A stretch of 36,069 nt of DNA from Victivallaceae bacterium. Its GTDB lineage: Bacteria > Verrucomicrobiota > Lentisphaeria > Victivallales > Victivallaceae. A program made the translations under genes and the position numbers. Numbering within the stretch: position 1 is the first letter of the stretch; the number at the start of each line of letters is the position of its first letter. Positions 1 through 22,175 of the stretch are shown here, one piece after another. The DNA lies in assembly GCA_045633645.1 (NCBI GenBank), contig JAZQYS010000216.1, positions 1-36,069 on the forward strand. Direction: 5' to 3'. A model generated the notes under the pieces. The model saw only the letters and a list, made by a program, of their open reading frames with translations, did no database searches and had not been told where the DNA came from.

Positions 1-83
1 ATAGTGATATATAACTCAAATTTTTTGAAAAACGATGATTTTTTCTGCTGGCGTAAAAAGATTTTATTTAGCAAATTTTAAAT

Positions 84-112
84 TTGCAAGTATTATATTT
101 TTATGGTATATT
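84..112 (+). promoter_or_regulatory. candidate sigma70-type promoter P1 upstream of the SIR2 operon
   Basis: TTGCAA (84-89), 17-nt spacer, TATATT (107-112), preceded by TGg (104-106) as an extended -10. It would give a ~170-nt leader. Host promoter rules are unknown. Confidence 0.25.
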
Positions 113-205
113 ACAGCAAGTAGCATTGGTTGGTAAAAAACTCTGCCACTGTTGCCCCAGATGAGTAAACTGAACAGGAACTAAAATATTAGCTTTGGAA
201 AGTTA

Positions 206-233
206 TTGTCATCGGGAAACATGAAATTAATAA
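206..233 (+). promoter_or_regulatory. candidate sigma70-type promoter P2, proximal to the SIR2 gene
   Basis: TTGTCA (206-211), 16-nt spacer, TAATAA (228-233). The predicted start lies just before the 244-262 palindrome. Confidence 0.25.
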
Positions 234-243
234 ACATAAAAAG

Positions 244-262
244 TTTTAGATACTATCTAAAA
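244..262. promoter_or_regulatory. perfect 9+1+9 palindrome TTTTAGATA-C-TATCTAAAA (operator-like)
   Basis: Read directly from the sequence. It sits between candidate promoter P2 and the GGAG RBS (277-280) of the SIR2 gene. Confidence 0.35.
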
Positions 263-290
263 AAATAGACATAAATGGAGTGTGAAAAAT

Positions 291-2933
291 ATGAATACAG
301 TGACTGACAAATTGGCTCACAAGAAGCGCTCTGTGAAAGATTTGGTACGTTTTATAAAAACCAAATCAGGAAATTTATCCAATTTTGCATTGCTTCTTGG
401 TGCAGGGTGTTCTATTACGTCAGGAGTACGTTCTGCTACAGAGTTGTCAGAAATATGGGCACGTGAAATTTATGAAAGCTACGATGGCGACCCTAAAGAT
501 AATTTGGGACGAATCAGAGATTATTTTAAGCAAAACTATTCAGACTGGTATAATCCCAATCACGAATATAGCAGTTTGTTTGAAAAGCGTTATGATTTGC
601 CAGCTCAAAGGCGTGCATTCGTGGAAGAGGAAGTTGCCGGAAAATTTCCATCCTTGGGATATGCTTATTTAATTCGATTGATCGAAAATCGGTATTTCAA
701 CACAATTTTCACCACTAACTTTGACGATCTCATAAATGAATCTTTTCATCTCTTTGCAGACAGCAACTTGTCAGATGACGAAAGTGTCAGAGATTTAATG
801 CGTCCCATTGTGTGTGCTCATGATTCATCTGTAAAAAGTATTTCTGTAACTTCTGTTAGACCTAAAATTATTAAATTGCATGGAGATTTCCTTTTTGATG
901 ATATAAAAAGTACTCTGCGTGAAACAGAGTCTTTAGAAGAAAACATTCGTAATAAATTCGTTGAATTTTGTAAGGAGTTTGGACTAATCGCTGTTGGGTA
1001 TGCAGGCAATGACAGATCTGTTATGGATGTCATAAATTATTTGCTAAAGAGTGATGATTATTTAAAGAACGGCCTTTACTGGTGTGTTAGAAAAGGAGAT
1101 CCCATCTCGGACGAATTGCATAAATTGTTATGGAAAGATCGAGTTTATTACGTTGAAATTGATGGTTTTGATGAGCTTTTTGCTGAATTATACGAAGAGG
1201 TAAATTTAGAAAAACGCAGTCTCCCATTGCCCCAAGATCTACCTAATAAGAACAATATAATTATAGAACGGTTGGTAAGTAACAGTACTTTATTAAATAG
1301 TTCGTCTGATATTATAAAAAATGTAATTGAAAAATTGCAAAATGAGAAAAAGAAAAATTCTTTTTTCAGCAGTGTAAGAGAAGTTTTATTTCCAGAAGGT
1401 AAAATTGATGATTTCCAAGGTCTTTCCAGTGATGAAACCTTTGAATTGTTCGAAATAGACCGTTTGCGTACAGCAAAACGTTATGATGAAGCTTTAATTC
1501 GAGTCAAGTCAAATATATCAAATCCTGATTATTCGTTTTCCTTTAAAAATCGGCTGAAACATATTGCTGCAAATATTTTGAAAAGGCAAAGTAAATTTGA
1601 AGAAGCTCTTAAATATTGTGATGAGATAATTGCCGATTCCATGAATAATCCAGAAGAGTATCTTTTTAAAAACAATTTTTTAAAAAAGCATGAAGATAGA
1701 ATTGAAAATTTAAGAGAATGCATTAAAAAACATCCCTTCTTTTCAAGAATATATGAACAAATTGTGCATTATGAAAAAGAACTTTTGTCTCACAATTTTA
1801 ATGATCGGACAACATTGCTGACACAATTGATTGAAGATTTGGAAAATGGAATCAAATGTAATCCGGCGATGGATAATGATTGCTATTCTGCGAAATTTTC
1901 ACTATTGCTGAGTAAACGTAAAGAATATAGTGAAAACTGGTATAGAGAAGCCTTAAATATTTGCAAAAATGCAGAATCACAAAATCCAGAACATCCATTG
2001 GTATTCGATTTTAAACGCCAATTAATAACAAATGATCCGCACTGTAGCTCTGATAAAAAGAAGGAAATGTTATTGGAGCTCTGGGATAAATCAATTCAGA
2101 AATTAGATGATAATTTTGATATTTATATCGGAACGTGTCTTCAGCTTTTAGACGAAACGATAGTATCAGCAGAAAAAATAGATTCTGTTACAAAGTATAT
2201 AGAGAAAAATGAAAATAGACTGAAAGGAAAAATTCGTTTTGCAAGAATGTTTGCGGATTTTTATGCAAGACGCAGTGGAAATATTACAAAAGCATTACAA
2301 CTGTGGTCAAGTATTCCAGAGGACGATTATGATTTTGAAATTCTTGATTCACTCAAGAGTTGTTATTCTATTCTCAAGAAAAAAACTGAATTTGAAGCTT
2401 TATTATTACGGGTTAAGGATAATTTTAATACCAAAGGGCAATTGCGTATTGATTTGATGATTGCTGAGAGTCAAGAGGATTATGTTAAAGCTTTAGATAT
2501 ACTGAAAAAATTACAGGCAGATCAAGCTTATGATTATGAATATTTTACACAAGAGATGTATGCAAATCTTTGCATAGAAAATTTTGAAGAAGTTTTTACT
2601 CGTTCAAACGATATGTTGCAAGATATCACCTCAAATGAAGATAGATCATACTGTGACTTGATTAACTATGAAATTGCCCGAAAAGAGATAAAAAATCGTA
2701 AGGTTCGAGACGATAAACTCGAACATATTATTAACAGCAATGCTTCAGTTCCTTTGAAAGTAGCTGCATATCTTTTGTTAGATAGAGATGGAGAAGCAAA
2801 GAATTTTATTATTGACGATATTAAATATGATTTTTTTGCTGTAGCACAGTATTTAAATACTTTTGTGTTCAAAAGGTATTTAGATGATGAAACAAAGAGA
2901 AAGCTAGAAGATAAGTTAACTAAAGTAGTCTGA
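291..2933 (+). CDS. SIR2-family (SIR2_2/DHS-like NAD-binding) domain protein with a long C-terminal helical, TPR-like repeat region; putative NAD+-depleting defence effector
   Basis: The ORF track gives 282-2933. I prefer ATG 291 because GGAG at 277-280 lies 10 nt upstream, whereas GTG 282 has no spacing. Motifs: LLLGAGCSITSG, TTNFDDL (Asn146, ORF numbering, nt 717-719), KLHGDF (His200, nt 879-881), GYAGNDRS. The C-terminal ~570 aa is K/E/L-rich and helical, with no P-loop and no TM segment. Confidence 0.8.
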   Translation: MNTVTDKLAHKKRSVKDLVRFIKTKSGNLSNFALLLGAGCSITSGVRSATELSEIWAREIYESYDGDPKDNLGRIRDYFKQNYSDWYNPNHEYSSLFEKRYDLPAQRRAFVEEEVAGKFPSLGYAYLIRLIENRYFNTIFTTNFDDLINESFHLFADSNLSDDESVRDLMRPIVCAHDSSVKSISVTSVRPKIIKLHGDFLFDDIKSTLRETESLEENIRNKFVEFCKEFGLIAVGYAGNDRSVMDVINYLLKSDDYLKNGLYWCVRKGDPISDELHKLLWKDRVYYVEIDGFDELFAELYEEVNLEKRSLPLPQDLPNKNNIIIERLVSNSTLLNSSSDIIKNVIEKLQNEKKKNSFFSSVREVLFPEGKIDDFQGLSSDETFELFEIDRLRTAKRYDEALIRVKSNISNPDYSFSFKNRLKHIAANILKRQSKFEEALKYCDEIIADSMNNPEEYLFKNNFLKKHEDRIENLRECIKKHPFFSRIYEQIVHYEKELLSHNFNDRTTLLTQLIEDLENGIKCNPAMDNDCYSAKFSLLLSKRKEYSENWYREALNICKNAESQNPEHPLVFDFKRQLITNDPHCSSDKKKEMLLELWDKSIQKLDDNFDIYIGTCLQLLDETIVSAEKIDSVTKYIEKNENRLKGKIRFARMFADFYARRSGNITKALQLWSSIPEDDYDFEILDSLKSCYSILKKKTEFEALLLRVKDNFNTKGQLRIDLMIAESQEDYVKALDILKKLQADQAYDYEYFTQEMYANLCIENFEEVFTRSNDMLQDITSNEDRSYCDLINYEIARKEIKNRKVRDDKLEHIINSNASVPLKVAAYLLLDRDGEAKNFIIDDIKYDFFAVAQYLNTFVFKRYLDDETKRKLEDKLTKVV

Positions 2934-2965
2934 TTCAAAAAACGATTTTGCAATGGAGAAACAAT

Positions 2966-3346
2966 ATGATTTATTCTGAAGAACAGTGGGAAATTCAAAA
3001 ACAGCAAACGGAAACATTGCAAAAATTTCTTGAAGGCTGTTGTAAGGCAATGGAAATAGAAAATGACCGGCAGGAAGCTATTGGAGCATTGCAGTTTTTT
3101 GATCGACAGAAAGCGATTAATACGTTGTTGAAGCTGCTGAATAAATATTATCTGCCAAATCAATTTTTTATGAATGCTTTACGGGACGGTAACATTTCAG
3201 ATTGGCAACTATGCAATGAGTTGAACAACATCGTTCAGAGCATTTACTTTGTTGCCATAATGAAATACTGTGCCGAAGAAGCAATAAAAAGTATGGCAAA
3301 ACAGGCATTGGAAACGAGCAGAAAAATAGCTGGAACTTTTAAATAA
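2966..3346 (+). CDS. hypothetical small helical protein (126 aa), co-oriented partner of the SIR2 protein
   Basis: ORF 2948-3346. ATG at 2966 is preceded by GGAGA (2955-2959) at 6-nt spacing. It starts 32 nt after the SIR2 stop and shares the same AT-rich composition. No recognisable motif. Confidence 0.55.
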   Translation: MIYSEEQWEIQKQQTETLQKFLEGCCKAMEIENDRQEAIGALQFFDRQKAINTLLKLLNKYYLPNQFFMNALRDGNISDWQLCNELNNIVQSIYFVAIMKYCAEEAIKSMAKQALETSRKIAGTFK

Positions 3347-3377
3347 CTCCTGCGCCTTAAAGTTTCTGTTATTTTTC

Positions 3378-3413
3378 AATATAAAAACACCGGTAGAATC
3401 ATGTTTTTATATT
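3378..3413. terminator. 12-bp perfect inverted repeat (AATATAAAAACA / TGTTTTTATATT, 12-nt loop) between convergent genes
   Basis: Read directly. Arms are 3378-3389 and 3402-3413. The stem is very AT-rich, so the hairpin is weak. It lies at the composition shift and overlaps the Fic stop codon. Confidence 0.3.
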
Positions 3414-4360
3414 TATTTTCCAAAGTATCCGCCGTTTTTAGTGGCACCGCGAAATGCGATTTTACCAGAGGTTTTGAGGCGGTTTAATTCGCGTTGAAGT
3501 GTGCGTAAGGGAATACCCAGGGACTCGGAGATTTGATTGGCTCGACAGCCGGGATGGTTGATGATGAAATCCAATACTGGATTGCCAGTTTCAATGGATG
3601 TTCCGGAGGTGTGCAGCTTCAGAGCGTTCAGGATTTCGTTAAGCATAAAGTCAATGAAAATGCCGCAATCATTCTTTGCACTGCTGGCATTGATCGCCCG
3701 ATAATATTCCGGTTGGTTGTTATGCACCATCGTTTCAACAGGAAGATTCTGAAATACAGGATTCAGTTGGGTCAGAATCAGCGATTGCCATAAACGTCCC
3801 AATCTGCCGTTACCGTCAGCAAAGGGATGGATGAATTCAAATTCATAATGGAATACGCAACTTTTTATCAGCAGATGGTCAGGAGCCGATTTCAACCAGT
3901 GAAAAAGGTCTTTGATCTGACCGGGAACTAATGCCGCCGGTGGCGCAATATGAACAACCTGTTTACCGTCTGACACTCCGACTCCACCTTTGCGGAACTT
4001 GCCGGGTTCTTCGATCAAAGCGGTCATCATCACATTATGCGCTTTCAACAAATCAGGCACCGAAAAGGGATCAAGTTCTGAAAAAAGATCATAAGCAGCG
4101 ATAGCGTTTTTGACTTCCTGAATTTCACGCAACGGAGCAACGACTCTTTTCCCGTCAATAATGTCAGTCACCTGTTTTAAAGACAGAGTATTGCCTTCGA
4201 TCGCCAATGTTGACTGGATCGTTTTGATTTTGTTGGCACGGCGCAGTTTCAGAGAATCAGCAGCCTCCTGTGTAATGGTATAACGTTCCAATAACGCTGA
4301 AATCCTGGCAACAAGCGAAACTGCCTGTGCTGAAACTGTAAAGCAAGGTTGATAGTCCAT
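3413..4360 (-). CDS. Fic family protein (AMPylase-type, class II with N-terminal inhibitory helix) with a C-terminal winged HTH
   Basis: Fic motif HPFADGNGRLGR (nt 3794-3829). Inhibitory motif TLAIEG ([ST]xxxE[GN], Glu55). C-terminal HTH-like ANQISESLGIPLRTLQRELNRLKTSGKI. RBS AAGGGA upstream. Confidence 0.9.
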   Translation of the reverse strand: MDYQPCFTVSAQAVSLVARISALLERYTITQEAADSLKLRRANKIKTIQSTLAIEGNTLSLKQVTDIIDGKRVVAPLREIQEVKNAIAAYDLFSELDPFSVPDLLKAHNVMMTALIEEPGKFRKGGVGVSDGKQVVHIAPPAALVPGQIKDLFHWLKSAPDHLLIKSCVFHYEFEFIHPFADGNGRLGRLWQSLILTQLNPVFQNLPVETMVHNNQPEYYRAINASSAKNDCGIFIDFMLNEILNALKLHTSGTSIETGNPVLDFIINHPGCRANQISESLGIPLRTLQRELNRLKTSGKIAFRGATKNGGYFGK

Positions 4361-4380
4361 ATTTTTCCCTTTCAGCAGTT

Positions 4381-4434
4381 AATATAGCATTTACTCCGCC
4401 AAAAATCAAGATTTACACCGCCATTTACTCCGCC
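4381..4434 (-). promoter_or_regulatory. Fic promoter (TTGATT-N17-TATATT with TGc extended -10) overlapped by three 12-bp direct repeats GGCGG(A/T)GTAAAT
   Basis: On the minus strand the -35 is at 4404-4409 and the -10 at 4381-4386. Plus-strand repeats ATTTAC(T/A)CCGCC are at 4389-4400 (inside the spacer), 4411-4422 and 4423-4434 (just upstream of the -35). Confidence 0.45.
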
Positions 4435-4554
4435 AAGATGGGTGACTTCTCAAAACAATCATAACGCCCTACCGAACCTTTTAACGATACCTTGTGATTG
4501 CTGCCGGGATATTTTACTCCCGACTGGCTCGGTCTGCTTGAACAGTGAAACGCT

Positions 4555-5346
4555 TCACTGCTGACGCTTTTTCCGTAAGGCCCCCGGAGTTACTCCAAGG
4601 ACCTTGCGGAAACGATCTGACATATAATACCGGCTGCAGAAACCGCATATTTCTGCAATCTCCTCAAGCGAATGATCGCTGTTGAGCAGCAGATTGCGTG
4701 CATTACGCAGTTGATGCTGCTCGCGGTAATTGCGCGGGGAGCATCCCAGTTCGCGCGCAAATGTGGTGTAAAAGGTCGAAACCGACACGCCGCATCTGCG
4801 GGCGATCTCCTCCATTGACGGGCAATCATCTGAAGTGAGCATTTTGAGCGCAAGATCAAGTAATTTGTGCGACAGTATGCTTTGTCCTGAATTTACCATG
4901 CACACGCGCAGAAGTGTGTTTTCAAGCAGGTTCAGAGCCAGTTCCTCCCAATTGTTCCGGTGATAATATTCAAGCTCACAGATCTCATCCAGATTGTCGG
5001 TGATTTTTTCAAGATCCTGATTTTCAGGGGTGAAACATCCCATTCCCGGCAGGACCTCCGGGAATGTGAGTATGTCAAGGATATGGCTGCGTACCGGAAA
5101 GTGGAACCAGATATATTTCCAGTATCCGTTGGCGTGGAACGTATAGGCATAGCCCGGCTTGTAGATCAGCAGTGAATGGTGCGGAATATCGATCTTTTCA
5201 TCTTTTAATGATATAGAACCGCTGCCATCGGCAGAAAAAAGCAGTCCCCACGGTTTGAGCAGACGCCGGTTCCAGTGCGAAGGATACAGATGTTTGTTGC
5301 AGCCGCCGATTATTTCAAGTAAAAATTGATCTGATGATTTTTCCAT
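4555..5346 (-). CDS. AraC family transcriptional regulator
   Basis: C-terminal double HTH typical of AraC/XylS (SMEEIARRCGVSVSTFYTTFARELGCSPRNYREQHQLRNARNLL...LEEIAEICGFCSRYYMSDRFRKVLGVTPGALRK), with an N-terminal cupin-like sensor. It is divergent from the glycan operon. Confidence 0.9.
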   Translation of the reverse strand: MEKSSDQFLLEIIGGCNKHLYPSHWNRRLLKPWGLLFSADGSGSISLKDEKIDIPHHSLLIYKPGYAYTFHANGYWKYIWFHFPVRSHILDILTFPEVLPGMGCFTPENQDLEKITDNLDEICELEYYHRNNWEELALNLLENTLLRVCMVNSGQSILSHKLLDLALKMLTSDDCPSMEEIARRCGVSVSTFYTTFARELGCSPRNYREQHQLRNARNLLLNSDHSLEEIAEICGFCSRYYMSDRFRKVLGVTPGALRKKRQQ

Positions 5347-5383
5347 TTTGTAGAAACACGTATTTTTTTTACAGAATTTCTGA

Positions 5384-5412
5384 TTGTTTCAACCTGCATT
5401 TTGTGATATAAT
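5384..5412 (+). promoter_or_regulatory. candidate promoter of the plus-strand glycan operon
   Basis: TTGTTT (5384-5389), 17-nt spacer, TATAAT (5407-5412), with TGa extended -10 at 5404-5406. Located in the AraC/GH127 divergent intergenic region. Confidence 0.35.
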
Positions 5413-5459
5413 ATACTGCATACAAGAGAAACATTCAAATATAACAAAAAATTTTAATT

Positions 5460-7373
5460 ATGGAAAAATATATATTTTCAGATCAGATAACTCCGCTTTC
5501 CATCGGCAGCTGCACTTTCAAAGGTGCGATCGCTGAAACCATGGAAAAATTCTTTTTTCAGCGCATCAATTCATCCGATGCCAGAAAAAAAGTCTATCAG
5601 GAGACCATCGATGCCTACCGCAACCGGATCGATGATGACCGCAAAGTCATCGGTATCTGGCAGGGGGAATACTGGGGCAAATGGATCATAAGTGCTGTCC
5701 GTGCGGCAAAGTACTCCGGAAATGCGGAACTGGTTTCTTTTATCCGCAGCGCAGTGTACGAACTGCTGACGCTCCAGCAACCTGATGGATGTATTTCAAC
5801 ATATAAAGATGTTACATTGTTTCATAGTGCACCGCCGGAGGAAGTCATAAAAGTCCTGGGGGTACCCTGTGACTGGAACTGGAACATCTGGTGCCGCAAA
5901 TATACCCTCTGGGGATTGCTTGAAGCATGGGAACTGCTTCAGGAACAGCCGATGCTCACCGCTGCTGAACGCTTGGCGGATCAGCTCATAACCAGTCTGG
6001 AAGAGACCGGAACCGATATCCATGATACCGGTACTTTCTGTGGTATGCCAAGCTGTTCGATATTGAAACCCATGCTGATGCTCTACCGTTACACCGGCAG
6101 AAAACGGTTTCTTGAATTTGCCGATTTCATCGTTGACGGCTGGAAACGCAGTGACGGAAAGCTGCCCAATCTGATAAACAATCCGCTTTCCGGCAAACCG
6201 GTACATCTCTGGGGTGAGGTGTCCGCCACCCGCTGGGCGAAAGCCTATGAGATGCTTTCCTGCTACGACGGACTGCTGGAGTATTACCGTGTGACCGGCA
6301 GTAAAGAGGCTCTTGATGCTTCGCAGCAGCTTTACAAATTGCTCAAAGAATATGAACTCAATCAGGTGGGCAGTGTCGGATTCAACGACCAGTTCGTACA
6401 CGCTGCACAGATCATGGAGTGCATCACAGAGCCGTGCGATGCCATACACTGGATGCGGTTCTGCGGAGAACTTTTCAAACTTACCGGTAAGCCGGAGTAT
6501 CTCGACTCATTTGAATTTGCATACTGCAATGCATTTCTCGCAAGTGCTCACCGCGACGGCAAATGGGGACTGCGCGGTGCAAGAAGCTCCGGGCACCACC
6601 TGGAGGCTCCCGGGCAGGCGAGGATGCTCTACAATCACTGCTGCGTGAACAATATGCCGCGCGGGTTCATCAACGCTGTGGAATGTGCTGTCATGAAGAA
6701 ACAAAATCAGCTTTACCTCAATTTCTGTTTTCCGCTGGATTGTCAGGCGGTACTTGATGACGGCAATCAGGTCTTGCTTTCAGTTTCCGACGGTTATCTG
6801 CAGTACGGTAAAGTCACCGTTACGGTCAATGCACAGAAGGCTTTTGTCATGCAGGTGCGTATCCCGGATTGGAGCCGGAATACAGTTGTCGTTTTGAACG
6901 GTACAAAGTTCGCTCCGGAGGCTGGAACTTTTGCCGCACTGGAATTGGCGGCTGGAGAAAACAGTTTTACCGTCGAATTTGACCATACCGTACAGCTGTT
7001 GGATGTTTCCGGGGCGGATCCGGCTGACCTTGATCCCTGGTACAGGCGCCGCTATTTTTCTGACGAACAAGGGGTGAAATCCGAACTTGAGATCATTACT
7101 TCTCCGGAAACAGTCATCCGGATCGGGCCTGTTCTGCTGGCAAGAAGCAGGATCATCGGAAATACTCTAGAAGAAATGTTCGATGCTCCGTCGATTCACG
7201 GCAGAAATTTCAAATGCAAGTTGACTCCGGCTGATATCGAGGGTGTTTTTGCCGGATTTGAAGCGGAATTCACATCTCCGGATGGAGAAAGTTTTACGAC
7301 AAAAGTCTGTGATTACGCTTCTTCCGGAAATGTCAAAATTGAAGAAAACCTCTTTTTCAATATGTTTTTCTGA
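5460..7373 (+). CDS. glycoside hydrolase family 127-like (DUF1680, beta-L-arabinofuranosidase-type) protein
   Basis: 637 aa with no signal peptide. It has TEPCD (Glu-x-Cys) and [10 protein letters not shown] (Cys-Cys), spaced roughly as the Zn/catalytic Cys cluster of GH127. No obvious SD precedes ATG 5460, so the start is uncertain. Confidence 0.6.
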
Positions 7374-7398
7374 TCCAACAAAAGAGAAAGGATTTGCC

Positions 7399-8220
7399 AT
7401 GAAAAGAAAATTTCTCCACCTGCAAAGCTGCCGTTTCACGTTGATCGAGCTGCTTGTTGTCATTGCAATCATTGCGATTCTTGCGGCGATGTTGATGCCG
7501 GCGTTGAACAAGGCACGCAGCAAAGCTCAGGAAATGTCTTGCATGAACAACTTGAAGCAGATCGCCCAAATACATGATCTCTACAGTTCGGCTCAGAAAG
7601 GTTATATGATCCCGAGTACACAATATGGTTTGAATGATGGCAGTTTGACAACCTTCTACTGGTATCGGACCGCTATCAATTTGATGAATTTTGCCCCCTC
7701 TTTTCTGGCTTGTCCGGCAAACAACATCAACATCACCCCCATAGGCAGTGTCTCCGGAAATACGACTTGCTATTGGAACTATACCGGATTGCAGAAAAAA
7801 CGCCGGACATACCAGCAGAATTTTCTGATCGGGCGGTGCAATCAGGCACCCACTCACAAGGAATACCGGGCAGGATGGTTAACAGGAAAATTTCGAAGAC
7901 CCTCCATCTCCATTGTCAATTTCTGCTCTTACTGGAAGGAAGCATATGATCCAGCTCTCGGTGTCGGTGATTTGCATTATCTTCGACTGAATTCTGCCGG
8001 AAGTGGAAAATATGAAACTGTCCATGAAGATAAATTTACCTTTTCCTTTGCTGATGGTCATGTTGCAATGGTTTCCCGTACCAGGTTTGAATCAAATTAT
8101 TATCTTGCCGACGGTACGGGGAAGGGCATTGCAGGCGGTACCGGCGCAAATAACGCCAAACTTACAGATGTAAACCGCGGGTGTGCGAATTTTATCCATG
8201 GTCAGGGAACTGACTGGTGA
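7399..8220 (+). CDS. prepilin-type N-terminal domain protein with C-terminal H-X9-DG motif (DUF1559-like)
   Basis: The ORF track starts at 7243, but the ATG at 7399 follows AAAGAGAAAGGA and yields [37 protein letters not shown]-terminal [12 protein letters not shown] fits H-X9-DG. Confidence 0.85.
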
Positions 8221-8248
8221 TTTCCAATTTATTTAAAGGCATGAACAA

Positions 8249-10387
8249 ATGAAAATCCAGATATTAAAAAACAACAGTATCAACTATTGTTCCAGACAGA
8301 CATATTTCTCAGAGCGTTTTGAAAACGGACGGCTTTTTTCTGAATACTGGAATGCCTGCGGGCAGGAGTTGAAAATGGTCGAACCGCGCGTTTGGGAAAT
8401 CGGGAAAGACACTTTCCGGCTGAGCATCGGTCCGCATGAAATGGAGGGAAATCTCCGTCTCAAAAGTATGGCCGCAGTGTCCGAAGACCACGCTGTCATT
8501 AAACTGGAACACAATAAACTTCCCATTGCAATCGAGGTCCATACCCTTGTTCCCGATGACGGTTTTCTCGTCCGCTATTTGACTGTCACCAATTGTGGGA
8601 GAAGAGCCTTGCCGATCTACAAAGCAGAGGTATTTTCCGGACAGTTGTGGAAACATCGTGTTGACTTGCATGTCGATGCCAATACCTCTCCATTCCGGGC
8701 TGCTTATACCCACGACTGTTCTTATAAACATGAAGGCGACTTTTATTACACACCTGTTGACTATGGACAGACGATCTGTGACGGAGGACTCCACGGACGC
8801 AGCGGCTGGGGGCGCCCCGCATTCTGGGCCAACGATCTGAGCAACGGGCAGACCTTTGTCTGCGAACTGGCATGGGGAGGAAACTGGCACTTCATCCTGA
8901 ACTGCGAATCAACGGAGATCCAGAACAAAATAAACGGAATGTTCGCCCCGCCGCTGCTCCGGAAGGTTGCGTCTCTCGACTTTCAAATCGGTCTGGCTGG
9001 TGAAGACATCCTGCGCGTATTGGATGCCGGTGAAACCCTGACGACCCCCGAAGTTCATTTCGGAATGTTTCATTGCAATAATGACGAAATTGTCCAGTTG
9101 ACTCACCGTCATGTCCGGGAGCAAATTGTCCCGAAATCACTGGAAGATCAGATAAACGATGTCGAGATATGCCATCGCGGCTATTGGGCAGGTGATGAGA
9201 ATACTGCCGACATTCTGGAAGATATCAAACTGGCCAAAGTAGCCGGCATAGAGTTATATATGATCGACGCCGGTTGGTTCGGGAAGCATCCTTTGCAATG
9301 GTATTCGTCCGCCGGTAATTGGCAGGAGGGCGCCTGGATGAAGGAAGGCGGTGGCTTGCGCACTCTGGCGAAAACCGCCCACTCGCTCGGCATGAAATTC
9401 GGGTTGTGGATCGAAGCGGAGGCTGCGGGCGCAGATACTGAAATCTTTAAAAAGCACCCGGGCTGGCTTCTGCACCGCAATGGAACGCTTCCCGTTGGAA
9501 ATGCGGGGCGGGCATTGGACCTTACTCACCCCGAAGTGTATGAACATGTAAAGAAAATCATCGTCTACTGGATCACGGAACTGAAACTTGATATGTTCCG
9601 GCTGGACCACAACCACTGGATCATGCCCGAACCCAACCGGATGTACCGGGGGTACCGCGAAGGATTGATCTGGCGTTATTATGAGGCGTTTTATCGCATG
9701 ATAACCGAATTGCGCGAGCAGTTCCCCGATGTGATGTTCCAAAACTGCGCCACAGGCGGCGGCCGCCTGGACTGGAAGACCATCTCCCTGTTTCACAACA
9801 GTGAAATTACCGACTGTACAGTGGAACCACAGCAGTTCAAGATCCTCAATGGCGTTACCATGTCCATTCCTCCGGAATTCCTGCTCTCTCGCGTCGGACT
9901 GAAGGAAAAATCCTTCGACATGGACGCCGGAATCTATGATCTGGCACGCGGTATGAGCCGTCTGAATATCCGCGGCATTGCGAAAAAGAAGGAAACTCTC
10001 GGACCTTATTTTGCCGGAGAGTTCTTCCGCGGGCTCCGGGCATACAAAGAAATTTTCCGGAATCTGTTGAAGAATGGGAAACTGTGGCATCACACACCAT
10101 TTTTACCTCTCGACGGAGCGGCGCCATGGTGCGCTTTGGAATGCAGCTCTCCTGATGGTTCCGCTTCTTATGCCGTCATCATGCGTTGCCGTTATGGAGA
10201 AAATGACACGTTCACATTCTATCCCCGCGGCATTGATCCCAATCATACGTGCCGCGTACAACTGCTGGTTACGAAACAGGAGTTTACCATTTCCGGCAGC
10301 GCATTGCTGCAAAACGGCATCCGTGTGACCCTGGATGCCCCCATGATGGCAGAAACGATCGTGTTCAATACAATCAATACCCAATAG
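8249..10387 (+). CDS. glycoside hydrolase family 36 (alpha-galactosidase-like)
   Basis: 712 aa. GH36-like blocks: YMIDAGWFG, LDMFRLDHNH (nucleophile region, cf. KWDMN) and NCATGGGRLDW (cf. CxGGGGR-D acid/base region). Confidence 0.7.
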   Translation: MKIQILKNNSINYCSRQTYFSERFENGRLFSEYWNACGQELKMVEPRVWEIGKDTFRLSIGPHEMEGNLRLKSMAAVSEDHAVIKLEHNKLPIAIEVHTLVPDDGFLVRYLTVTNCGRRALPIYKAEVFSGQLWKHRVDLHVDANTSPFRAAYTHDCSYKHEGDFYYTPVDYGQTICDGGLHGRSGWGRPAFWANDLSNGQTFVCELAWGGNWHFILNCESTEIQNKINGMFAPPLLRKVASLDFQIGLAGEDILRVLDAGETLTTPEVHFGMFHCNNDEIVQLTHRHVREQIVPKSLEDQINDVEICHRGYWAGDENTADILEDIKLAKVAGIELYMIDAGWFGKHPLQWYSSAGNWQEGAWMKEGGGLRTLAKTAHSLGMKFGLWIEAEAAGADTEIFKKHPGWLLHRNGTLPVGNAGRALDLTHPEVYEHVKKIIVYWITELKLDMFRLDHNHWIMPEPNRMYRGYREGLIWRYYEAFYRMITELREQFPDVMFQNCATGGGRLDWKTISLFHNSEITDCTVEPQQFKILNGVTMSIPPEFLLSRVGLKEKSFDMDAGIYDLARGMSRLNIRGIAKKKETLGPYFAGEFFRGLRAYKEIFRNLLKNGKLWHHTPFLPLDGAAPWCALECSSPDGSASYAVIMRCRYGENDTFTFYPRGIDPNHTCRVQLLVTKQEFTISGSALLQNGIRVTLDAPMMAETIVFNTINTQ

Positions 10388-10498
10388 AATTTTCAGAATG
10401 CCGGTCAAGTGGTCGGGAATTCTGTTGATTGATGATGTCTGCATTACGGCTCAGGCATCTGTAAAAATAATTCTGAAGCAGGAAAGTGAAAATATATT

Positions 10499-12583
10499 AT
10501 GAAATTACTGTTTTTTATATGTGCTGTTTTACTGCCGGCAGTTTCATTCGCGGATGATTTGCCTAAACCGGATGTCATTCGTGGATATGGCACAGCTCAG
10601 GGGGAACAGGCGATCTTATACTCCAATGCCTTCGAAAACCGGAATATTCCCGGGATGAAGCTGATGAACGGGTTCAAAATCGTTCCCGGCGAAGGCGCCA
10701 ATGGTACCAGTGCGCTGAAAATTTCGGCAAAAAATCCCAACAAAAAAGATCTCTACTGCATCTTGGAATTGCCTGATATTCCGGTCGGAACCAAAGCAAT
10801 CGTCAGTTTCGATGTCCGCGGAGAGGACATCCAGCTCAATGGAAAACAGCCGCCAAAGGCCTATTTCCCATACGCCGCAGTGGAATTTCGCAGCTTGAAG
10901 ACAGGGAAAATCAGCCGTTTGGGCACATGGACCCGTGTTCCCATTTCCCCGCAATTTGAAAAACGCCAATTCAACTTTACCGCAATGGAGGGATACAAAC
11001 CTTTTCTGGTTTTACGCTTGACTACGAATTGGAGCGGTACAATCTGGTTTGACAATATTTCGGTTACTTCTGCCGGAACCAAAAAATCGGTCTTCCTGAA
11101 TCAGCCGTTCATGCGTTGTTTCAACTTGTCACCTGAGTTCCGGTTGACTGTTTGTGCGGGAGAACTCAAATCTCCTGCGCTCCTTGTCGCCATAGAACAG
11201 AACGGCAGGATATTGGAAGAGTGTGTCATCGGTCCCTCCGCAGACGGCTCATATGAAGGGACTCTGAAAAAAACTTATCCCGATGGTTCGGCAACGATGG
11301 ATATCACCCTGGCTGATATCGCACAGCAAAAGCGTTTGTTTCACAGCCGTATTCCTGTGAATTTCCGGTTCAACGCAAAAGTTCCGGACAATGCAGTCAT
11401 CCCGGATGCTTACGGCCGCCTTCTTGTCAATGGAAAACCGTTTATGCCCATCAAAACCGATGTCTATTTGAGTGCGCATATTGCTCCCCATGGTTCCATG
11501 GAGGAATTCCGCAAGGTCTGTGCCGATCTGAAAGCTTCGGGGTTCAATATGATCTCTGATTCGGAGTTTCTCCGTACTTATAAAGACATCAAGAACTTCT
11601 GCAGTTTTTCAGATAACAAGGCAAATGACCTTCTCGCGGTATTCGATGTCCTGCAGGAATACGGTCTGAAAGGCATGGTTTCCATGGGTATTCTCTATGA
11701 CCACTATCGTTGGCAACCCAAAGATTTTTGCGGCAAAAGAGGCATGCGTGCCATGTCGGCAAAGGTCGTTGAAACATTGAAAAATCATCCGGCTTTATTC
11801 CTGTGGTATATCTGCGATGAATCCCCGGTGGAACAATGGAACGATGTTCTTGCCATGCGCGAAATCTGTCATTCTCTTGACCCCTGGCATCCGACACTGG
11901 CATGTAATTATATCGGGACACTTCTGCCGGAAAATGCACAGTTGGGCGATGTGTTCGGTGTTGACAATTACCCTGTTTCGAATGAAGCAGTATCCGATAT
12001 CTCATCAATCTACAGTATGATGAAGTTAGTCCAGACCAGTAGCGTACCTCTCTGGGGCATCGTTCAGGCCTTCAACTGGGCATATTACTCTCCGGCCAAG
12101 AAAGAAGAATACGGCAAGAGATACACAACTCCGTCCGAGGAAGCTCTGCGCGGCATGACGCTTCTCTACGCTCTGGGCGGAGCCAGGGGGTTTAATTTTT
12201 ACTCTTATCCCAAGACTTGGCATTATCGCAAACAGATGAAAAAATTCGGAGACAAGGATTATTCCGACATCATGTGGAAACGCACCTGCCGGGTCGTGAC
12301 GGATTTGAAAAAAATGGAACCGTATATTCTCGGCAAGGCCGCCATTCAGCCAATCGTTTTCAAGGACAATACGAAGAATATTCTTTACGGGGGGATTTTT
12401 ACTGCCGATGACGGTCGTCAGGCTGTGGCTGTCGTTTCCTCGCAGAATGTCGCAACCGACACGACATTTGAGATACCCGGTAAAGCCGATCTGAAATCCC
12501 TGCATGGCCGGATCCAGAACTTGGGCAACGGGAAATATCGCTGTGTCATGAATCGTATTGATGGTGACATCCTCCTGCCGTAG
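10499..12583 (+). CDS. secreted putative glycoside hydrolase: N-terminal CBM-like beta-sandwich plus TIM-barrel-like domain (family unassigned)
   Basis: Signal peptide MKLLFFICAVLLPAVSFADD. CBM4_9-like ending GTIWFDNISV. Clan GH-A-like blocks NHPALFLWYICDESP and VFGVDNYP. The family call is tentative. Confidence 0.5.
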   Translation: MKLLFFICAVLLPAVSFADDLPKPDVIRGYGTAQGEQAILYSNAFENRNIPGMKLMNGFKIVPGEGANGTSALKISAKNPNKKDLYCILELPDIPVGTKAIVSFDVRGEDIQLNGKQPPKAYFPYAAVEFRSLKTGKISRLGTWTRVPISPQFEKRQFNFTAMEGYKPFLVLRLTTNWSGTIWFDNISVTSAGTKKSVFLNQPFMRCFNLSPEFRLTVCAGELKSPALLVAIEQNGRILEECVIGPSADGSYEGTLKKTYPDGSATMDITLADIAQQKRLFHSRIPVNFRFNAKVPDNAVIPDAYGRLLVNGKPFMPIKTDVYLSAHIAPHGSMEEFRKVCADLKASGFNMISDSEFLRTYKDIKNFCSFSDNKANDLLAVFDVLQEYGLKGMVSMGILYDHYRWQPKDFCGKRGMRAMSAKVVETLKNHPALFLWYICDESPVEQWNDVLAMREICHSLDPWHPTLACNYIGTLLPENAQLGDVFGVDNYPVSNEAVSDISSIYSMMKLVQTSSVPLWGIVQAFNWAYYSPAKKEEYGKRYTTPSEEALRGMTLLYALGGARGFNFYSYPKTWHYRKQMKKFGDKDYSDIMWKRTCRVVTDLKKMEPYILGKAAIQPIVFKDNTKNILYGGIFTADDGRQAVAVVSSQNVATDTTFEIPGKADLKSLHGRIQNLGNGKYRCVMNRIDGDILLP

Positions 12584-12746
12584 AAGATATAAGCCGTAAT
12601 AACCGGGGAACATGGCAGATGTGATATATGCCGTCATAATGGAACAAACCTGAAAAGGTACGGTTTTGAGTAACGGCTGCACATGTGTGAAGTCCCGGTT
12701 TGGCATAGACAGTTGATTGATTTTGAACGGAAAAGAAGGATAAATA

Positions 12747-13676
12747 TTGAGCATGTGGAGTTGTTTTACTGGATTTTTACTGGTTTTTATCGCCGGTTTC
12801 TTCTGGATTGGGATCGGTGTTGCTGTAAGCAAATGTTCCGCGCGGGGGTGGAATTATAATATCGTTCAGGGACTGACCTATTTGGGGTCTGCCATGATTT
12901 GCGCCGTGATCCTGGCCGGTAAAAGTGTCAGTACCGGATCATCGGGAATATCTGGATTTGGATTCCTGATGTGCAGTCTGGGCGGATTTGCTAATTTCTA
13001 TAACTATGTTCTTACTGCAAAAGCTATGCAAAGAGGACCCAATGGACTGGTGTGGGGAATCATGCAGTCAGGACTGGTTGGAACGTTCCTGTTGGGAGTG
13101 ATTTTCTTCGGCGAAAAACCTGCTCCGCTCCGGCTGGCTGGTCTGTTTATGATCATCTGCGGTGTTCTTGTCATGGGGCTGGCAAAAAACAAAAAAAACT
13201 CCGTCCGAATTTCGGAGGGCACATCAAAAAACTGGGTGCTGTTCTCTCTTGGGGCTATGCTGCTTTCCATGGTTACACAATGCTGCAACATTTTGCCTTC
13301 CTATTTTCCGGAAATGGGTGAAAACGGCGCGGTCAGCCGGACTCTGGGAATGTATTTCGGCGGTGTGATCGGTTTCGTACTCACCACGCTGCCGGGAATG
13401 ATCCGCAGTAAAAATTTCGGTGGGGGCGGCGAATGGATTACTTCCGGTATCCTGATTATCACGAACACTTCCGCCAGTCTCTTCTTTTTTTACCGGGGGC
13501 TTGATTTGCTGACCAAAAGCAGCTGCGGCGGATTGGGATATCCTGTTGCAATCGGTGTCTGCGTCATCGGCTTTTCACTTTACAGTCTGTTGGCTTTGAA
13601 AGAAAAATTTTCCCGTCTCAGCCTGACTGGACTTACTGCCGTTTGCTTGGGAATCATTGTCATTTCCCTGAAATAA
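12747..13676 (+). CDS. multi-pass membrane permease, DMT superfamily-like (RhaT/GRP-type sugar transporter-like)
   Basis: ~10 hydrophobic segments in two halves and ~309 aa, located inside a sugar-catabolic operon. The start is TTG 12747 or ATG 12753. Confidence 0.55.
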   Translation: MSMWSCFTGFLLVFIAGFFWIGIGVAVSKCSARGWNYNIVQGLTYLGSAMICAVILAGKSVSTGSSGISGFGFLMCSLGGFANFYNYVLTAKAMQRGPNGLVWGIMQSGLVGTFLLGVIFFGEKPAPLRLAGLFMIICGVLVMGLAKNKKNSVRISEGTSKNWVLFSLGAMLLSMVTQCCNILPSYFPEMGENGAVSRTLGMYFGGVIGFVLTTLPGMIRSKNFGGGGEWITSGILIITNTSASLFFFYRGLDLLTKSSCGGLGYPVAIGVCVIGFSLYSLLALKEKFSRLSLTGLTAVCLGIIVISLK

Positions 13677-13747
13677 TCCTTGAGAGGAACCAGAGATTAC
13701 CGTAAAAACAGCAACTTTTCTTAAAAGTGGAAAAAGGGAAATCCAAT

Positions 13748-14656
13748 ATGATCATTGATGCTCATGCACATATCTATGAATATTGCCGCCCATACGGTCC
13801 GCGTGGTGAAGGCAGAGCAATCGGCGGTGGACTGATCCAATGGCCGAATGGTAAAGTGGAACGCTTTTTTCCGGAACGTTACGGCGACTGCGGATTTACT
13901 GCGGAAACATTGCTCGCCCTGATGCGGGAAAATGCGGTGGACAAGGCTGTGCTTTTGCAGGCATCCAATTACGGTTTTCAAAATGAATATATCGCCGATA
14001 TCCTGAAAAAATATCCTGATAAGTTTGTCGGAGCCTGCGCTTTTGATCCTTATGCAAAACGAGCTCCTGAATTGTTCCGGCATTTTTCAGATGAAATGAA
14101 CTATCGGATCGTAAAATTTGAGATCAGCGAAAGCTGGGGGTTGTCCGGCATCCATCCGGATTTGTCGCTGGATTCACCGCTTTTTAATCCTGTATGGGAA
14201 TGGGCTCAAGAGAAAAATGTTACCGTTGTTGTAGATACAGGGCCCCGCAGCAATATCAACTGGCGTACGGATACCATTGCCAATGTTCTCCGCCGATATC
14301 CGGAATTGCGCTTCGTTGTGGCACATGCGCTTTTCCCTTGCGACGACGGTTTTAATGATACCCGATTGAACATGTTGTCAACAATTGCAGGGAATAATTG
14401 TTATTTTGATATATCTAATATCATCCCTCGCAATGAAACATATCCTTATCCGAACCTGCAGAAGTATTTGCGGCAATTGGTTGATCTTGCCGGAGCTGAT
14501 CATGTAATGTGGGGCAGTGATTTGCCCTGGGCATTGTGCCTTTATGACTACCGTGCATTATATCAATATCTGATCGATGGAAAATCATTTTCTGCGGAAG
14601 AACTCTCCTGGATCCTCGGCAGTACAGCGGAAAATCTTTATTTCAATCAAAAGTGA
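13748..14656 (+). CDS. amidohydrolase family protein (Amidohydro_2 / sugar lactonase-like metal hydrolase)
   Basis: MIIDAHAHIY (HxH metal motif) at the N-terminus, plus VVAHALFP and WGSDLPW. ATG 13748 with AAAGGGAAA upstream is preferred over GTG 13727. Confidence 0.75.
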   Translation: MIIDAHAHIYEYCRPYGPRGEGRAIGGGLIQWPNGKVERFFPERYGDCGFTAETLLALMRENAVDKAVLLQASNYGFQNEYIADILKKYPDKFVGACAFDPYAKRAPELFRHFSDEMNYRIVKFEISESWGLSGIHPDLSLDSPLFNPVWEWAQEKNVTVVVDTGPRSNINWRTDTIANVLRRYPELRFVVAHALFPCDDGFNDTRLNMLSTIAGNNCYFDISNIIPRNETYPYPNLQKYLRQLVDLAGADHVMWGSDLPWALCLYDYRALYQYLIDGKSFSAEELSWILGSTAENLYFNQK

Positions 14657-14745
14657 ATATATGAACATGAATTATTTTCACAGAGGCAATTTCAAAAGAC
14701 ACTCAAAAAGATTGCCTTTCTTACAAACATTATGAGGTGATAATT

Positions 14746-16383
14746 ATGAATTGGGAAACAATTTACCAGAGTTCACTTGCAAAAATTTTTCCGGATCGTG
14801 CTCCGGATGAACCCTGTTTGCGTGAAATTCCGGCATGGGGCGGAGAAAGAGTTCATTTTCAGGCGGTATTCCGTCCTGATTTCAGCTGGGGCAAAGTCAA
14901 AGTTGAAATCGACTCTCCTCTGGCGGATAAGATCCGTCTGCGCACGGCAGAGCTGGTGCCGGTCGATTACCTGCCGCCGGAGTACGATGCCGACAGTGTA
15001 TATCACAAACCGGGAGTTTATCCGGATCTGTTGCGCGATCTTGAAGATAATGCCTTTTCCTCCGTGATCAATCAGTGGCGGAGTATCTGGGTGACGGTGG
15101 ATGTGCCGGAAGATCTTCCTGCCGGAGATTACCCCGTCACGGTCAGATTCAACGTGTTCAACATCGTCACCAAAGAGGATGCTGTCTTTTCCGGTCCTCA
15201 GCTGATACTCCGCATACAGGCAAAAAAACTGCCGCCGCAGACATTGAAAAACACGCACTGGTTCCATTGTGATAGTATTGCGGATTATTACGGAACTGAA
15301 ATGCTCTCTGAAGAACACTGGCGTCTGATCGGAAACTTTATGCATGCAGCTTCAGAGTGCGGAATCAATATGATACTGACTCCGATCGTGACTCCGCCGC
15401 TGGACACAGAAGTCGGCAGTTCCCGTCCGGTGGTTCAGTTGGTGGATATTTTCTGCGACAACGGCAAATGGAGTTTTGATTTTTCCAAACTTGAAAGATG
15501 GTGCAAACTGGCACAGGAAAACGGCATCAGATATTTTGAAGCGGCGCACTTGTTCACTCAGTGGGGCGCAAAATGCACTCCGAAGATCATGGCACGGTGG
15601 AATGGTGTGACAAAGCAGATTTCCGGCTGGGATTTGGCTGCAGATGCACCGGAGTACGAAACATTCCTGAGCGCATTTCTGCCTGCATTGACCGGCTGGA
15701 TCGATGCCAATGGTCTGCATGACCGCTTCTACTTCCACTGCTCGGACGAACCTCACGCAGAGGATTGCGAAATGTACGGCAAAGATTTTGCGCTGCTCCG
15801 GAAGTATTTATCAGGCATGAAGATTTTTGATGCGCTTTCGCGTCCGTCGATTTACGAAGCGACTGGTAAAAAGACCATTCCGGTGGTTTGCGAACACCAT
15901 CTGCACGAGTTTGAAGGGGTTGAGTTGCCGGAACGGTGGACCTATTACTGTTGTGAACCTTTTTCCAATTTCCCCAACCGTTTCATCCATATGCAGTCCT
16001 GGCGAAACCGCATTATTGGCGCATTGCTGTACCGTTACAATATGGAAGGATTCCTGCACTGGGGATTCAACTTCTACTATTCCCGTCTGTGCCGGTTCAA
16101 GGTCAATCCGTACTGCAACACCACAGCGGGCGGATCCTTCCCTGCCGGAGACGGATTTATCGTCTATCCGGGAGAAGGTGGAAAAGTTGAGTTGTCCATA
16201 CGCGCTGAAGTCTTTTATGATGCGCTCCAGGATATGCGCTGTCTGCAGCAGCTTGAAGCGGAATACGGTAGAGAAAAGGTCTGTCAGTTCCTCGACAGCT
16301 ACTCGGCAAATGGAACGTTTTCCATGACCGATTTTACCGTAAATCCGGAATTTTTCAGCGATCTGCGCACTGCCAGTTTGTGA
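14746..16383 (+). CDS. DUF4091 domain-containing putative glycoside hydrolase
   Basis: C-terminal block GDGFIVYPGEGGKVELSIRAEVFYDALQDMRCLQQLE resembles DUF4091. ATG 14746 follows GAGGTGA (14734-14740). The ORF track starts at GTG 14737. Confidence 0.5.
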   Translation: MNWETIYQSSLAKIFPDRAPDEPCLREIPAWGGERVHFQAVFRPDFSWGKVKVEIDSPLADKIRLRTAELVPVDYLPPEYDADSVYHKPGVYPDLLRDLEDNAFSSVINQWRSIWVTVDVPEDLPAGDYPVTVRFNVFNIVTKEDAVFSGPQLILRIQAKKLPPQTLKNTHWFHCDSIADYYGTEMLSEEHWRLIGNFMHAASECGINMILTPIVTPPLDTEVGSSRPVVQLVDIFCDNGKWSFDFSKLERWCKLAQENGIRYFEAAHLFTQWGAKCTPKIMARWNGVTKQISGWDLAADAPEYETFLSAFLPALTGWIDANGLHDRFYFHCSDEPHAEDCEMYGKDFALLRKYLSGMKIFDALSRPSIYEATGKKTIPVVCEHHLHEFEGVELPERWTYYCCEPFSNFPNRFIHMQSWRNRIIGALLYRYNMEGFLHWGFNFYYSRLCRFKVNPYCNTTAGGSFPAGDGFIVYPGEGGKVELSIRAEVFYDALQDMRCLQQLEAEYGREKVCQFLDSYSANGTFSMTDFTVNPEFFSDLRTASL

Positions 16384-16506
16384 AATACCGGTCATATTCA
16401 GTAGCTGACACAGACGCATTTTTTTGCCGAACAGATTCTGAGGCAGACTTATAAGTACAGTCTGTATGAGAGTGTTAAGCCCAATATACAACAGTTTGGT
16501 TATATC

Positions 16507-18902: not shown

Positions 18903-18923
18903 AAGCGAGCCTTATAAAAGCAT

Positions 18924-18959
18924 ACCGGCACTTCTCCCAGCGAGAGGTGCCGGTTTTTA
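18924..18959. terminator. bidirectional Rho-independent terminator between convergent element genes
   Basis: Stem ACCGGCACTTCTC / GAGAGGTGCCGGT (13 bp with one G-U), loop CCAGC, followed by TTTTT on the plus strand. The minus-strand reading is also followed by a T-rich run. Confidence 0.75.
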
Positions 18960-18961
18960 TA

Positions 18962-20284: not shown

Positions 20285-20323
20285 AGTCTGTTCCCGGATA
20301 TAGCTGAAAAGTATGCGTTTCAC

Positions 20324-20364
20324 AAAAGATAAAAACCCCAAACGGTACTAAATGGTACTGTTTG
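20324..20364 (-). terminator. hairpin plus T-run downstream of tRNA-Ala (minus strand)
   Basis: Arms 20339-20348 (CAAACGGTAC) and 20355-20364 (GTACTGTTTG) form 10 bp with one G-T wobble and a 6-nt loop. On the minus strand GGGTTTTTATCTTTT follows. Confidence 0.5.
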
Positions 20365-20503: not shown

Positions 20504-20530
20504 GTCTTTTAATACCTTTTTGAAAAAATT

Positions 20531-22166: not shown

Positions 22167-22175
22167 ACAAATTCC

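Follow-up and report, generated by a model that had tools for sequence, protein, structure and literature searches.

A SIR2-TPR protein of a Victivallaceae bacterium as a probable single-gene NAD+-depleting defence protein, carried as exchangeable cargo beside an independent 126-residue protein

Domains of the SIR2 family deplete NAD+ in bacterial defence systems that include DSR1, DSR2, SIR2-HerA and those in which SIR2 is allied to a prokaryotic Argonaute (pAgo). The immunity-associated subfamily of sirtuins is that denoted SIR2_2 or SIRim, and its characterised bacterial members are antiphage processors of NAD+. Depletion of NAD+ by SIR2 defence systems has been reported (10.1101/2021.12.14.472415); the same work describes DSR1 as a single-gene SIR2 defence protein and finds that N133 and H171 of DSR2, the predicted SIR2 active-site residues, are required for defence. 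As outlined in PMC11850899 and PMC10981675, the solenoid C-terminal domain (CTD) of DSR2 recognises a phage tail-tube protein. Avs5 (AVAST type 5) joins SIR2 to a STAND module and tetratricopeptide repeats (TPR) (PMC11897194, PMC12931631). Here we analyse a stretch of 36,069 nucleotides, referred to as the window, from a Victivallaceae bacterium (assembly GCA_045633645.1, contig JAZQYS010000216.1, positions 1-36,069 of the forward strand). Close to its left end it encodes an 880-residue protein, SIR2-TPR, in which an N-terminal SIR2 domain is followed by a TPR-like solenoid. We conclude that SIR2-TPR is probably a stand-alone, abortive-infection-type, NAD+-depleting defence protein with the solenoid as its sensor, and that the 126-residue open reading frame (ORF) downstream of it, ORF B, is not its partner.

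The long ORF spans 282/291..2933 on the + strand and encodes 883 residues from a GTG or 880 residues from the ATG at 291. The latter is the likely start, because a GGAG is positioned 11 nt 5' of it and the database copy P0001, an identical protein, is also 880 residues long. Residues are numbered here from this ATG; an earlier note on this DNA counted from the GTG at 282. The labels L and P denote the genomic loci compared and homologous database proteins, respectively, and alignment A1 comprises 35 full-length homologs with identities down to 31%. The features of the gene are as follows.

291..2933, + strand: SIR2-TPR gene, 880 residues, predicted single-protein NADase sensor-effector.
372..1205, + strand: SIR2_2 (SIRim-type) Rossmann domain including the GAGxS loop, residues ~28-305, from Pfam, PADLOC, PDB and Foldseek.
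717..719, + strand: codon of the catalytic Asn143 (Asn146 of the earlier note), invariant in A1 and aligned to FTTNFDD of GsSir2.
879..881, + strand: codon of the catalytic His197 (His200 of the earlier note), invariant in A1 and aligned to KIHGD of GsSir2.
1242..2927, + strand: TPR-like alpha-solenoid, residues ~318-879, presumed sensor, fast-evolving, from the AlphaFold 2 (AF2) model and profile matches.

The earlier note had recognised an ORF of ~880 residues with hallmarks of the SIR2_2 type, a catalytic Asn/His pair and a tail of TPR-like periodicity lacking a Walker A motif and a transmembrane segment, and each of these elements stands. Pfam SIR2_2 (PF13289) matches with an E-value of 4e-11 and 43.5 bits, against a gathering cut-off of 24.5, and the translation contains all four motifs that had been picked out, LLLGAGCSITSG, TTNFDDL, KLHGD and GYAGND. 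On proper alignment the Asn/His pair is not lost: N143 and H197 are invariant across the 35 sequences of A1, as are G37, G39 and S41, and the motifs FTTNFDD and K(I/L)HGD align with those of the solved Geobacter SIR2-APAZ protein. By analogy, N143 and H197 would be the equivalents of N133 and H171 of DSR2. The nearest SIR2 domain, by sequence and by fold, is that of the SIR2-APAZ proteins of short-pAgo (SPARSA) systems. The top PADLOC matches are Ago-associated SIR2 models (Aga_SIR2; PDLC02419), with an E-value of 5e-57 over residues 30-308 and limited to profile positions 6-287 of 558. When the A1 profile is compared with the PDB, the SIR2 part matches only Geobacter SIR2-APAZ (8jkz/8in8; E 5e-27, chain residues 19-308 of 584), and Foldseek with the predicted model places 8jl0_A, a SPARSA SIR2-APAZ chain, at first rank via the SIR2 domain.

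The AF2 model of the 880-residue protein (pLDDT 85.9, pTM 0.60) consists of a Rossmann-type domain extending to residue ~305, followed exclusively by paired helices from residue 318 to 879; there are no beta strands past residue 290, and the chain is all-helical after residue 310. The C-terminal part is TPR-like at the level of the family, though Pfam TPR matches for the query itself fall below threshold: homologs bear the Pfam TPR domains PF13428, PF14559 and PF07719, and the C-terminal region of the A1 family profile matches TOM70 (E 1e-7), LapB and designed TPR (CTPR) proteins. A scan of the 880-residue protein detected neither a Walker A motif nor a hydrophobic 20-mer. The solenoid has a mean pairwise identity of 0.22, versus 0.62 in the SIR2 part, the usual pattern expected of a fixed effector coupled to a diversifying sensor. 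Within the solenoid of A1, three residues are invariant, P525, N529 and N792, and Y793 is nearly so (query residues 525-529 and 792-793; motif IINYExARK); to judge from the alignment, they could belong to a conserved interface or touch the SIR2 domain.

Of the described systems, SIR2-TPR appears to work most like DSR2, with an effector homologous to SPARSA SIR2-APAZ; it is a member of neither family. PADLOC v2 gives no full-length model match, only matches to the SIR2 part, and the DSR1, DSR2, ThsA, SIR2-HerA and Avs models return nothing at E <= 1. As had been surmised, the protein has no full-length match to the models of DSR1, DSR2, ThsA, SIR2-HerA, Avs5 or SIR2-APAZ. The resemblance to DSR2 in layout that the earlier note had remarked upon is borne out for the class of architecture and not for the family. 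Like DSR2 of Bacillus subtilis, SIR2-TPR is a single polypeptide with an N-terminal SIR2 domain carrying the Asn/His pair and a long alpha-solenoid sensor. The Foldseek alignment with the DSR2 chains spans ~1050 columns (E ~1e-8), but with a TM-score of ~0.22, a root-mean-square deviation of ~24 Å and 12-14% identity, and these chains are not found when the PDB is searched by sequence with SIR2-TPR. DSR2 is made up of SIR2, MID and a HEAT-like CTD in ~1000 residues; SIR2-TPR is shorter by ~120 residues, has a SIR2 domain of the pAgo-associated clade and contains TPR-like instead of HEAT-like repeats.

The nearest SIR2 domain, that of SPARSA SIR2-APAZ (Geobacter GsSir2; PDB 8in8, 8jkz and 8jl0), has identical FTTNFDD and HGD motifs, but the match ends at residue ~308, where the TPR solenoid of SIR2-TPR replaces APAZ. 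A short pAgo gene is not present in the window locus, where the neighbours are ORF B and a Fic gene, and the 25 families reported most often for 150 ORFs neighbouring the homologs include no Piwi/pAgo family. With neither APAZ nor pAgo, guide-dependent sensing of nucleic acid is therefore not expected. Avs5 shares the combination of a SIR2 effector and a C-terminal repeat sensor within one protein; its STAND NTPase is not found in SIR2-TPR, which has no Walker A motif, no PADLOC Avs match and only helices beyond the SIR2 domain. DSR1 is likewise a single-gene SIR2 protein, but in addition to the missing PADLOC match no DSR1-like chain appears in the PDB searches. As to Thoeris, there is no PADLOC match to ThsA or ThsB and no TIR gene in the locus. 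For SIR2-HerA, the window locus contains no HerA ATPase gene, and no neighbour recurs in 54 loci of homologs. Membership of DSR2, DSR1, ThsA, SIR2-HerA and Avs5 was rejected on the PADLOC, PDB and Foldseek comparisons and the Walker A scan.

One PADLOC candidate, PDC-S65, matches in part (E 1e-22, residues 31-354 against profile positions 32-340 of 592). Its profile of ~590 positions describes a shorter architecture, of which the SIR2 part and ~45 further residues match, and it resembles the relatives of 530-620 residues in L071-L086. These relatives, together with L115 (Vibrio prophage PQ189330), form a shorter family with the same SIR2 domain (phrog_23427), which is possibly PDC-S65. PQ189330 is P2/186-like, and its shorter-family copy belongs to the lysogeny module, with the CI repressor and the integrase on either side. 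In the literature we found no SIR2-TPR protein without an NTPase described as a tested defence system and no paper naming PDC-S65; broader searches brought up only work on DSR2, Avs5, SPARSA, SIR2-HerA, FAM118/SIRanc and SAMD9.

SIR2-TPR belongs to a large family of stand-alone proteins without a conserved partner. A word-indexed search yielded 1,980 proteins at E <= 0.001 among 8,000 candidates scored, and the best 120 are mostly 850-895 residues long with query coverage above 90%. A scan of one genome per species gave 199 confirmed stretches encoding relatives, 80 of which were kept as loci for the comparison of neighbourhoods; these span Proteobacteria, Bacteroidota, Verrucomicrobiota, Firmicutes, Deferribacterales and others. 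No conserved, tightly linked gene lies up- or downstream among the 80 loci. When the 939 ORFs lying up to 2.5 kb away from 54 full-length homologs of different species were compared all against all, no neighbour family occurred in more than three loci, and SIR2-TPR is on this ground a single gene. The neighbours are mixed and include integrases, restriction-modification (R-M) enzymes, Abi_2, Fic, QatC and a dGTPase.

Several members of the family reside on mobile DNA. The full-length protein corresponds to the PHROG family phrog_14359 (E 5e-153), a 612-residue relative is encoded in a Vibrio prophage, flanked by the CI repressor and the integrase, and a conjugative Pantoea plasmid carries a stand-alone copy. 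In L001-L006 the SIR2-TPR gene follows a methyltransferase (MTase), an AlwI/FokI-type restriction endonuclease (REase) and Vsr on an integrase-bearing element. The gene for P0005, which is 67% identical (L087), lies in a Type I R-M operon just ahead of DarT and Macro, again on an integrase-bearing element; P0014 (44% identical) has a 111-residue gene and then an HD protein downstream, and P0021 (40% identical) has no nearby partner on the same strand. L087 shows a defence island embedded in an R-M system: at 1917-13512 the SIR2-TPR homolog and DarT-Macro (DarTG) are inserted between hsdS and hsdR, in the order hsdS, SIR2-TPR, DarT-Macro-hsdR, with the integrase adjacent.

By the mechanism that we propose, the N-terminal SIR2 (SIRim) domain would be a latent NAD+ hydrolase, and the TPR-like solenoid would be both its sensor and its autoinhibitory part. 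The solenoid would bind a ligand from the phage, which, as in DSR2, is most likely a protein, and binding would either relieve the inhibition or drive oligomerisation. The SIR2 domain would then hydrolyse NAD+, so that phage replication halts and the infection is aborted. In this genome the SIR2-TPR gene is the present cargo of a defence hotspot.

The surroundings of the gene bear on this last point. The relevant features of the window are these.

1..29, + strand: 3'-terminal part of a conserved ~85-nt element at the left boundary of the variable cargo region, 100% identical to L097 57-85.
83..112, + strand: predicted promoter-like site 5' of SIR2-TPR, TTTGCA/TTGCAA, spacer 17-18 nt, TG-TATATT, from a consensus scan only.
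145..290, + strand: decayed 3'-terminal remnant of a vsr gene, 72% DNA identity to L001 5476-5630.
2966..3346, + strand: ORF B, 126 residues, four-helix orphan, right-hand neighbour of variable defence cargo.
3413..4360, - strand: Fic/DOC protein, 315 residues, with a C-terminal winged helix-turn-helix (HTH), SoFic-like, convergent with ORF B.

SIR2-TPR is exchangeable cargo between the left element and ORF B, which is followed by the Fic-HTH gene, because the window and L097/L103 are homologous in DNA only in the two flanks and the same left element is found elsewhere. On the right, homology covers 2946-4423; it starts exactly past the SIR2 stop, ~20 nt 5' of ORF B, and runs through ORF B and Fic, which are kept together in L097/L103 with 80-84% DNA identity to L097. 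On the left it covers 1-29. As these 29 nt are the end of the ~85-nt element, the window begins inside the left boundary, suggesting that the assembly broke at a junction that is shared or variable. The element (L097 1-85, equivalent to L001 1676-1760) includes the 10-bp palindrome CACTATAGTG and lies just 5' of differing cargo in three lineages, those of the window, L097/L103 and L001-L005, and was found only in those; in L001-L005 it is directly 5' of the MTase-REase-Vsr-SIR2 cargo. It also displays a stem, CCCTGC...GCAGGG, and a promoter-like pair, TTGATC...TATAGT. In L001 the Vsr ORF occupies 5203-5619 and 5476-5630 is its end, and the matching window segment 145-290 is a remnant of the MTase-REase-Vsr module that precedes SIR2 there.

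In sister genomes the same slot holds recognised defence systems, namely Tmn, HEC-01 with a GmrSD/HEC-06-like gene, and EcoRII R-M with a PD-Lambda-5-like pair. In the hotspots of P2/P4 elements, position predicts defence function (Rousset et al. 2022, PMC9122126). The position of SIR2-TPR in this slot is strong evidence for a role in defence. As in the P2/P4-type hotspots, variable defence cargo lies between conserved flanks on mobile or island DNA; the host lineage (Lentisphaeria-type gut bacteria here) and the flanking markers are different. Neither a phage nor a satellite backbone was recognised around the copy in the window. The mechanism of exchange at the hotspot is presumed.

ORF B is a real and conserved gene, because it has homologs in an alignment, A3, and a confident AF2 fold of four helices (pLDDT 89). 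It has no significant match in Pfam, NCBIfam, PADLOC or PHROGs, and a Foldseek comparison with the PDB and BFVD gave no E-value better than 0.7 and no DNA-binding or other recognisable fold. Its homologs, 125-126 residues long, are few: a word-indexed search retrieved 48 clusters, all at least 61% identical, with a Lentisphaeria metagenome-assembled genome as the sole named organism, a profile search found five matches among 1.84 billion representatives, and a scan of metagenome contigs gave only two short loci. We conclude that ORF B is not a component of the SIR2 system but a narrow-lineage orphan at the 3' edge of variable defence cargo. Two observations carry this conclusion. The first is co-occurrence. 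No homolog of ORF B is found in any of the 80 genomic loci of SIR2 relatives, nor beside the 67%, 44% and 40% identical relatives P0005, P0014 and P0021. The ORF B homologs, surveyed in a census of context resting on nine of 12 exact-protein look-ups, follow quite different genes. In L102 the homolog is directly after a Tmn-type YobI ATPase (Tmn E 1e-81), in L093 and L094 it follows HEC-01A/B and a GmrSD/HEC-06-like gene, and in L097/L103 it follows Dcm-EcoRII-Vsr, an AAA ATPase and a PD-Lambda-5_B-like methyltransferase; it adjoins an integrase in L092, follows genes of no recognised kind in L101 and L113, and stands alone with its own upstream intergenic region in L106-L112. The second is the history of the sequences, in which B is decoupled from SIR2: the ORF B DNA of the window is 97.4% identical to the L097 copy, which accompanies non-SIR2 cargo, and 92.3% identical to the L001 copy, which accompanies SIR2 cargo, and the SIR2-TPR gene itself has ~83% DNA identity to its L001 counterpart. 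Among the genes 5' of ORF B homologs, those for proteins of 346 residues (L101) and 235 residues (L113/L114) have no match in any defence library and could be new defence genes.

The composition of the DNA has been read as a further tie between the two genes. The first 3.4 kb of the window, which hold the SIR2-TPR, ORF B and Fic genes, have a GC content of 0.30-0.34 versus ~0.47 elsewhere in the window (SIR2 0.32, ORF B 0.36, Fic 0.45), supporting the view that the SIR2-TPR gene sits in foreign, AT-rich DNA. The homologs of ORF B, however, have a GC content of 0.29-0.39 in every context examined, so that low GC, which the earlier note rightly assigned to both genes, is no evidence of acquisition together with SIR2. 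Its description of a 126-residue ORF starting 32 nt past the SIR2 stop with a ribosome-binding site of its own is correct (GGAGA, 8 nt 5' of the ATG). No terminator-like or strong promoter-like site separates the SIR2-TPR gene and ORF B in the window or in L001-L006, and ORF B is for that reason probably co-transcribed here with whatever lies upstream, owing to its position alone. It is this position in the exchange slot that makes B look like an operon partner and a two-gene annotation appealing.

Three other explanations of the locus were weighed. According to the first, which we regard as unlikely, ORF B is a generic, lineage-specific accessory of any upstream defence operon and modulates SIR2-TPR without specificity; it could act as a regulator on the left promoter/operator element or as an anti-toxicity factor. 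That B is repeatedly the last gene of an operon, 10-32 nt past unrelated defence genes, would fit such a role, as would the palindrome in the conserved element 5' of the cargo and the well-folded, conserved, helical nature of the protein. The fit is spoiled by L092, L106, L107, L109 and L110, in which B has a long upstream intergenic region of its own and no defence gene 5' of it, by the want of a DNA-binding or otherwise recognisable fold and by the confinement of the left element, as found, to the window, L097/L103 and L001-L005.

The second concerns SIR2-TPR itself. SIR2 domains can also act in deacylation or ADP-ribosylation. The SirTM class is mentioned in PMC12700824. SIR2-TPR might accordingly be non-immune, either a regulatory enzyme (a protein deacylase or an ADP-ribosyltransferase) or a toxin that stabilises mobile elements by addiction, with the TPR part binding a host partner. 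The many housekeeping genes near distant homologs and the frequent location of the family on mobile elements are compatible with this proposal, which we nevertheless think quite improbable: the domain is of the SIR2_2/SIRim type with its antiphage members, the nearest relatives in sequence and fold are the SIR2 proteins of SPARSA, the slot holds recognised defence systems in sister genomes, and no antitoxin-like neighbour is conserved.

The third, the model of the earlier note, makes SIR2 and the 126-residue protein a dedicated two-gene NADase system with B as a sensor adaptor, inhibitor or antitoxin, and, despite the tight same-strand spacing (32 nt, and 14 nt in L001-L006), the ribosome-binding site before B, an adjacency retained at 86% protein identity and the AT-richness of both genes, it is very improbable and was rejected, being largely refuted by co-occurrence, since the pair is not conserved among SIR2 homologs and B accompanies other cargo or stands alone, by the taxonomic narrowness of the B family compared with the many phyla of SIR2-TPR, and by the decoupled history of B.

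We therefore retain the reading of SIR2-TPR as a stand-alone, NAD+-depleting defence protein, against which several points must be set. We infer NADase activity and phage defence from homology and context, and likewise infer the nature of the trigger and the abortive outcome. The pTM of the model is only 0.60, so that the arrangement of the two domains, and hence autoinhibition, is tentative. Distant members are surrounded by housekeeping genes as well as by defence or mobile genes. As the comparison was made with PADLOC v2, the family may have been catalogued before under another name. Finally, ORF B lies 14-32 nt past SIR2 in the window and in L001-L006, and there may be a functional link between SIR2 and B that is specific to this lineage.

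If this reading is true, a common and very widely distributed architecture is added to the NAD+-depletion arm of bacterial immunity, and the effector domain of short Argonaute systems couples to a protein-repeat sensor without an Argonaute or an NTPase. The fast-evolving TPR tail would offer a tractable case for identifying the phage component that is sensed, and ORF B with the left element provides a simple handle on new defence genes in the poorly studied Lentisphaeria of the gut. The two-gene annotation is also corrected. Fusions of SIR2 with a sensor are a familiar theme, and the supposedly new two-gene system does not exist. Taken jointly, the claim would be that a protein combining a pAgo-type SIR2 with TPR is a widespread single-protein, NAD+-depleting phage sensor and that it occupies a new cassette-exchange hotspot of Lentisphaeria-type gut bacteria. 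It would include the distinctness of SIR2-TPR from DSR1, DSR2, Avs5 and SPARSA and its occurrence in many phyla, prophages and plasmids, the re-wiring of the SPARSA effector domain to a protein-binding TPR sensor, and the use of the ~85-nt promoter-like element and the four-helix ORF B as markers for mining defence genes. We put this whole forward tentatively, judging it slightly more apt to fail in some part than to hold throughout.

The Fic gene that completes the right flank matches Pfam Fic with an E-value of 1e-18, and its best PADLOC match is SoFic (E 6e-42); its score is far below the NCBIfam SoFic cut-off. It adjoins ORF B in L097-L100. This Fic-HTH gene could itself be a defence or toxin gene.

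A second signature of a mobile element, with a dip in GC to 0.40-0.42, is seen at 16542-20341 of the window, which encodes a 786-residue AAA_25 protein on the + strand and a 459-residue tyrosine integrase on the - strand. We considered and rejected these genes, at 16.5-20.3 kb, as part of the SIR2-TPR locus; they are 13 kb away, beyond host glycosidase genes, and we treat them as a separate element. The 459-residue integrase is 52% identical to that of the L087 element. The remainder of the window, 4555-16400 and 20500-35900, resembles the host chromosome of a polysaccharide-degrading bacterium, with an AraC regulator, GH127, a melibiase, two DUF4838/CBM9 proteins and RtcB; at 7243-8220 it encodes a protein whose N terminus has a prepilin-type motif.

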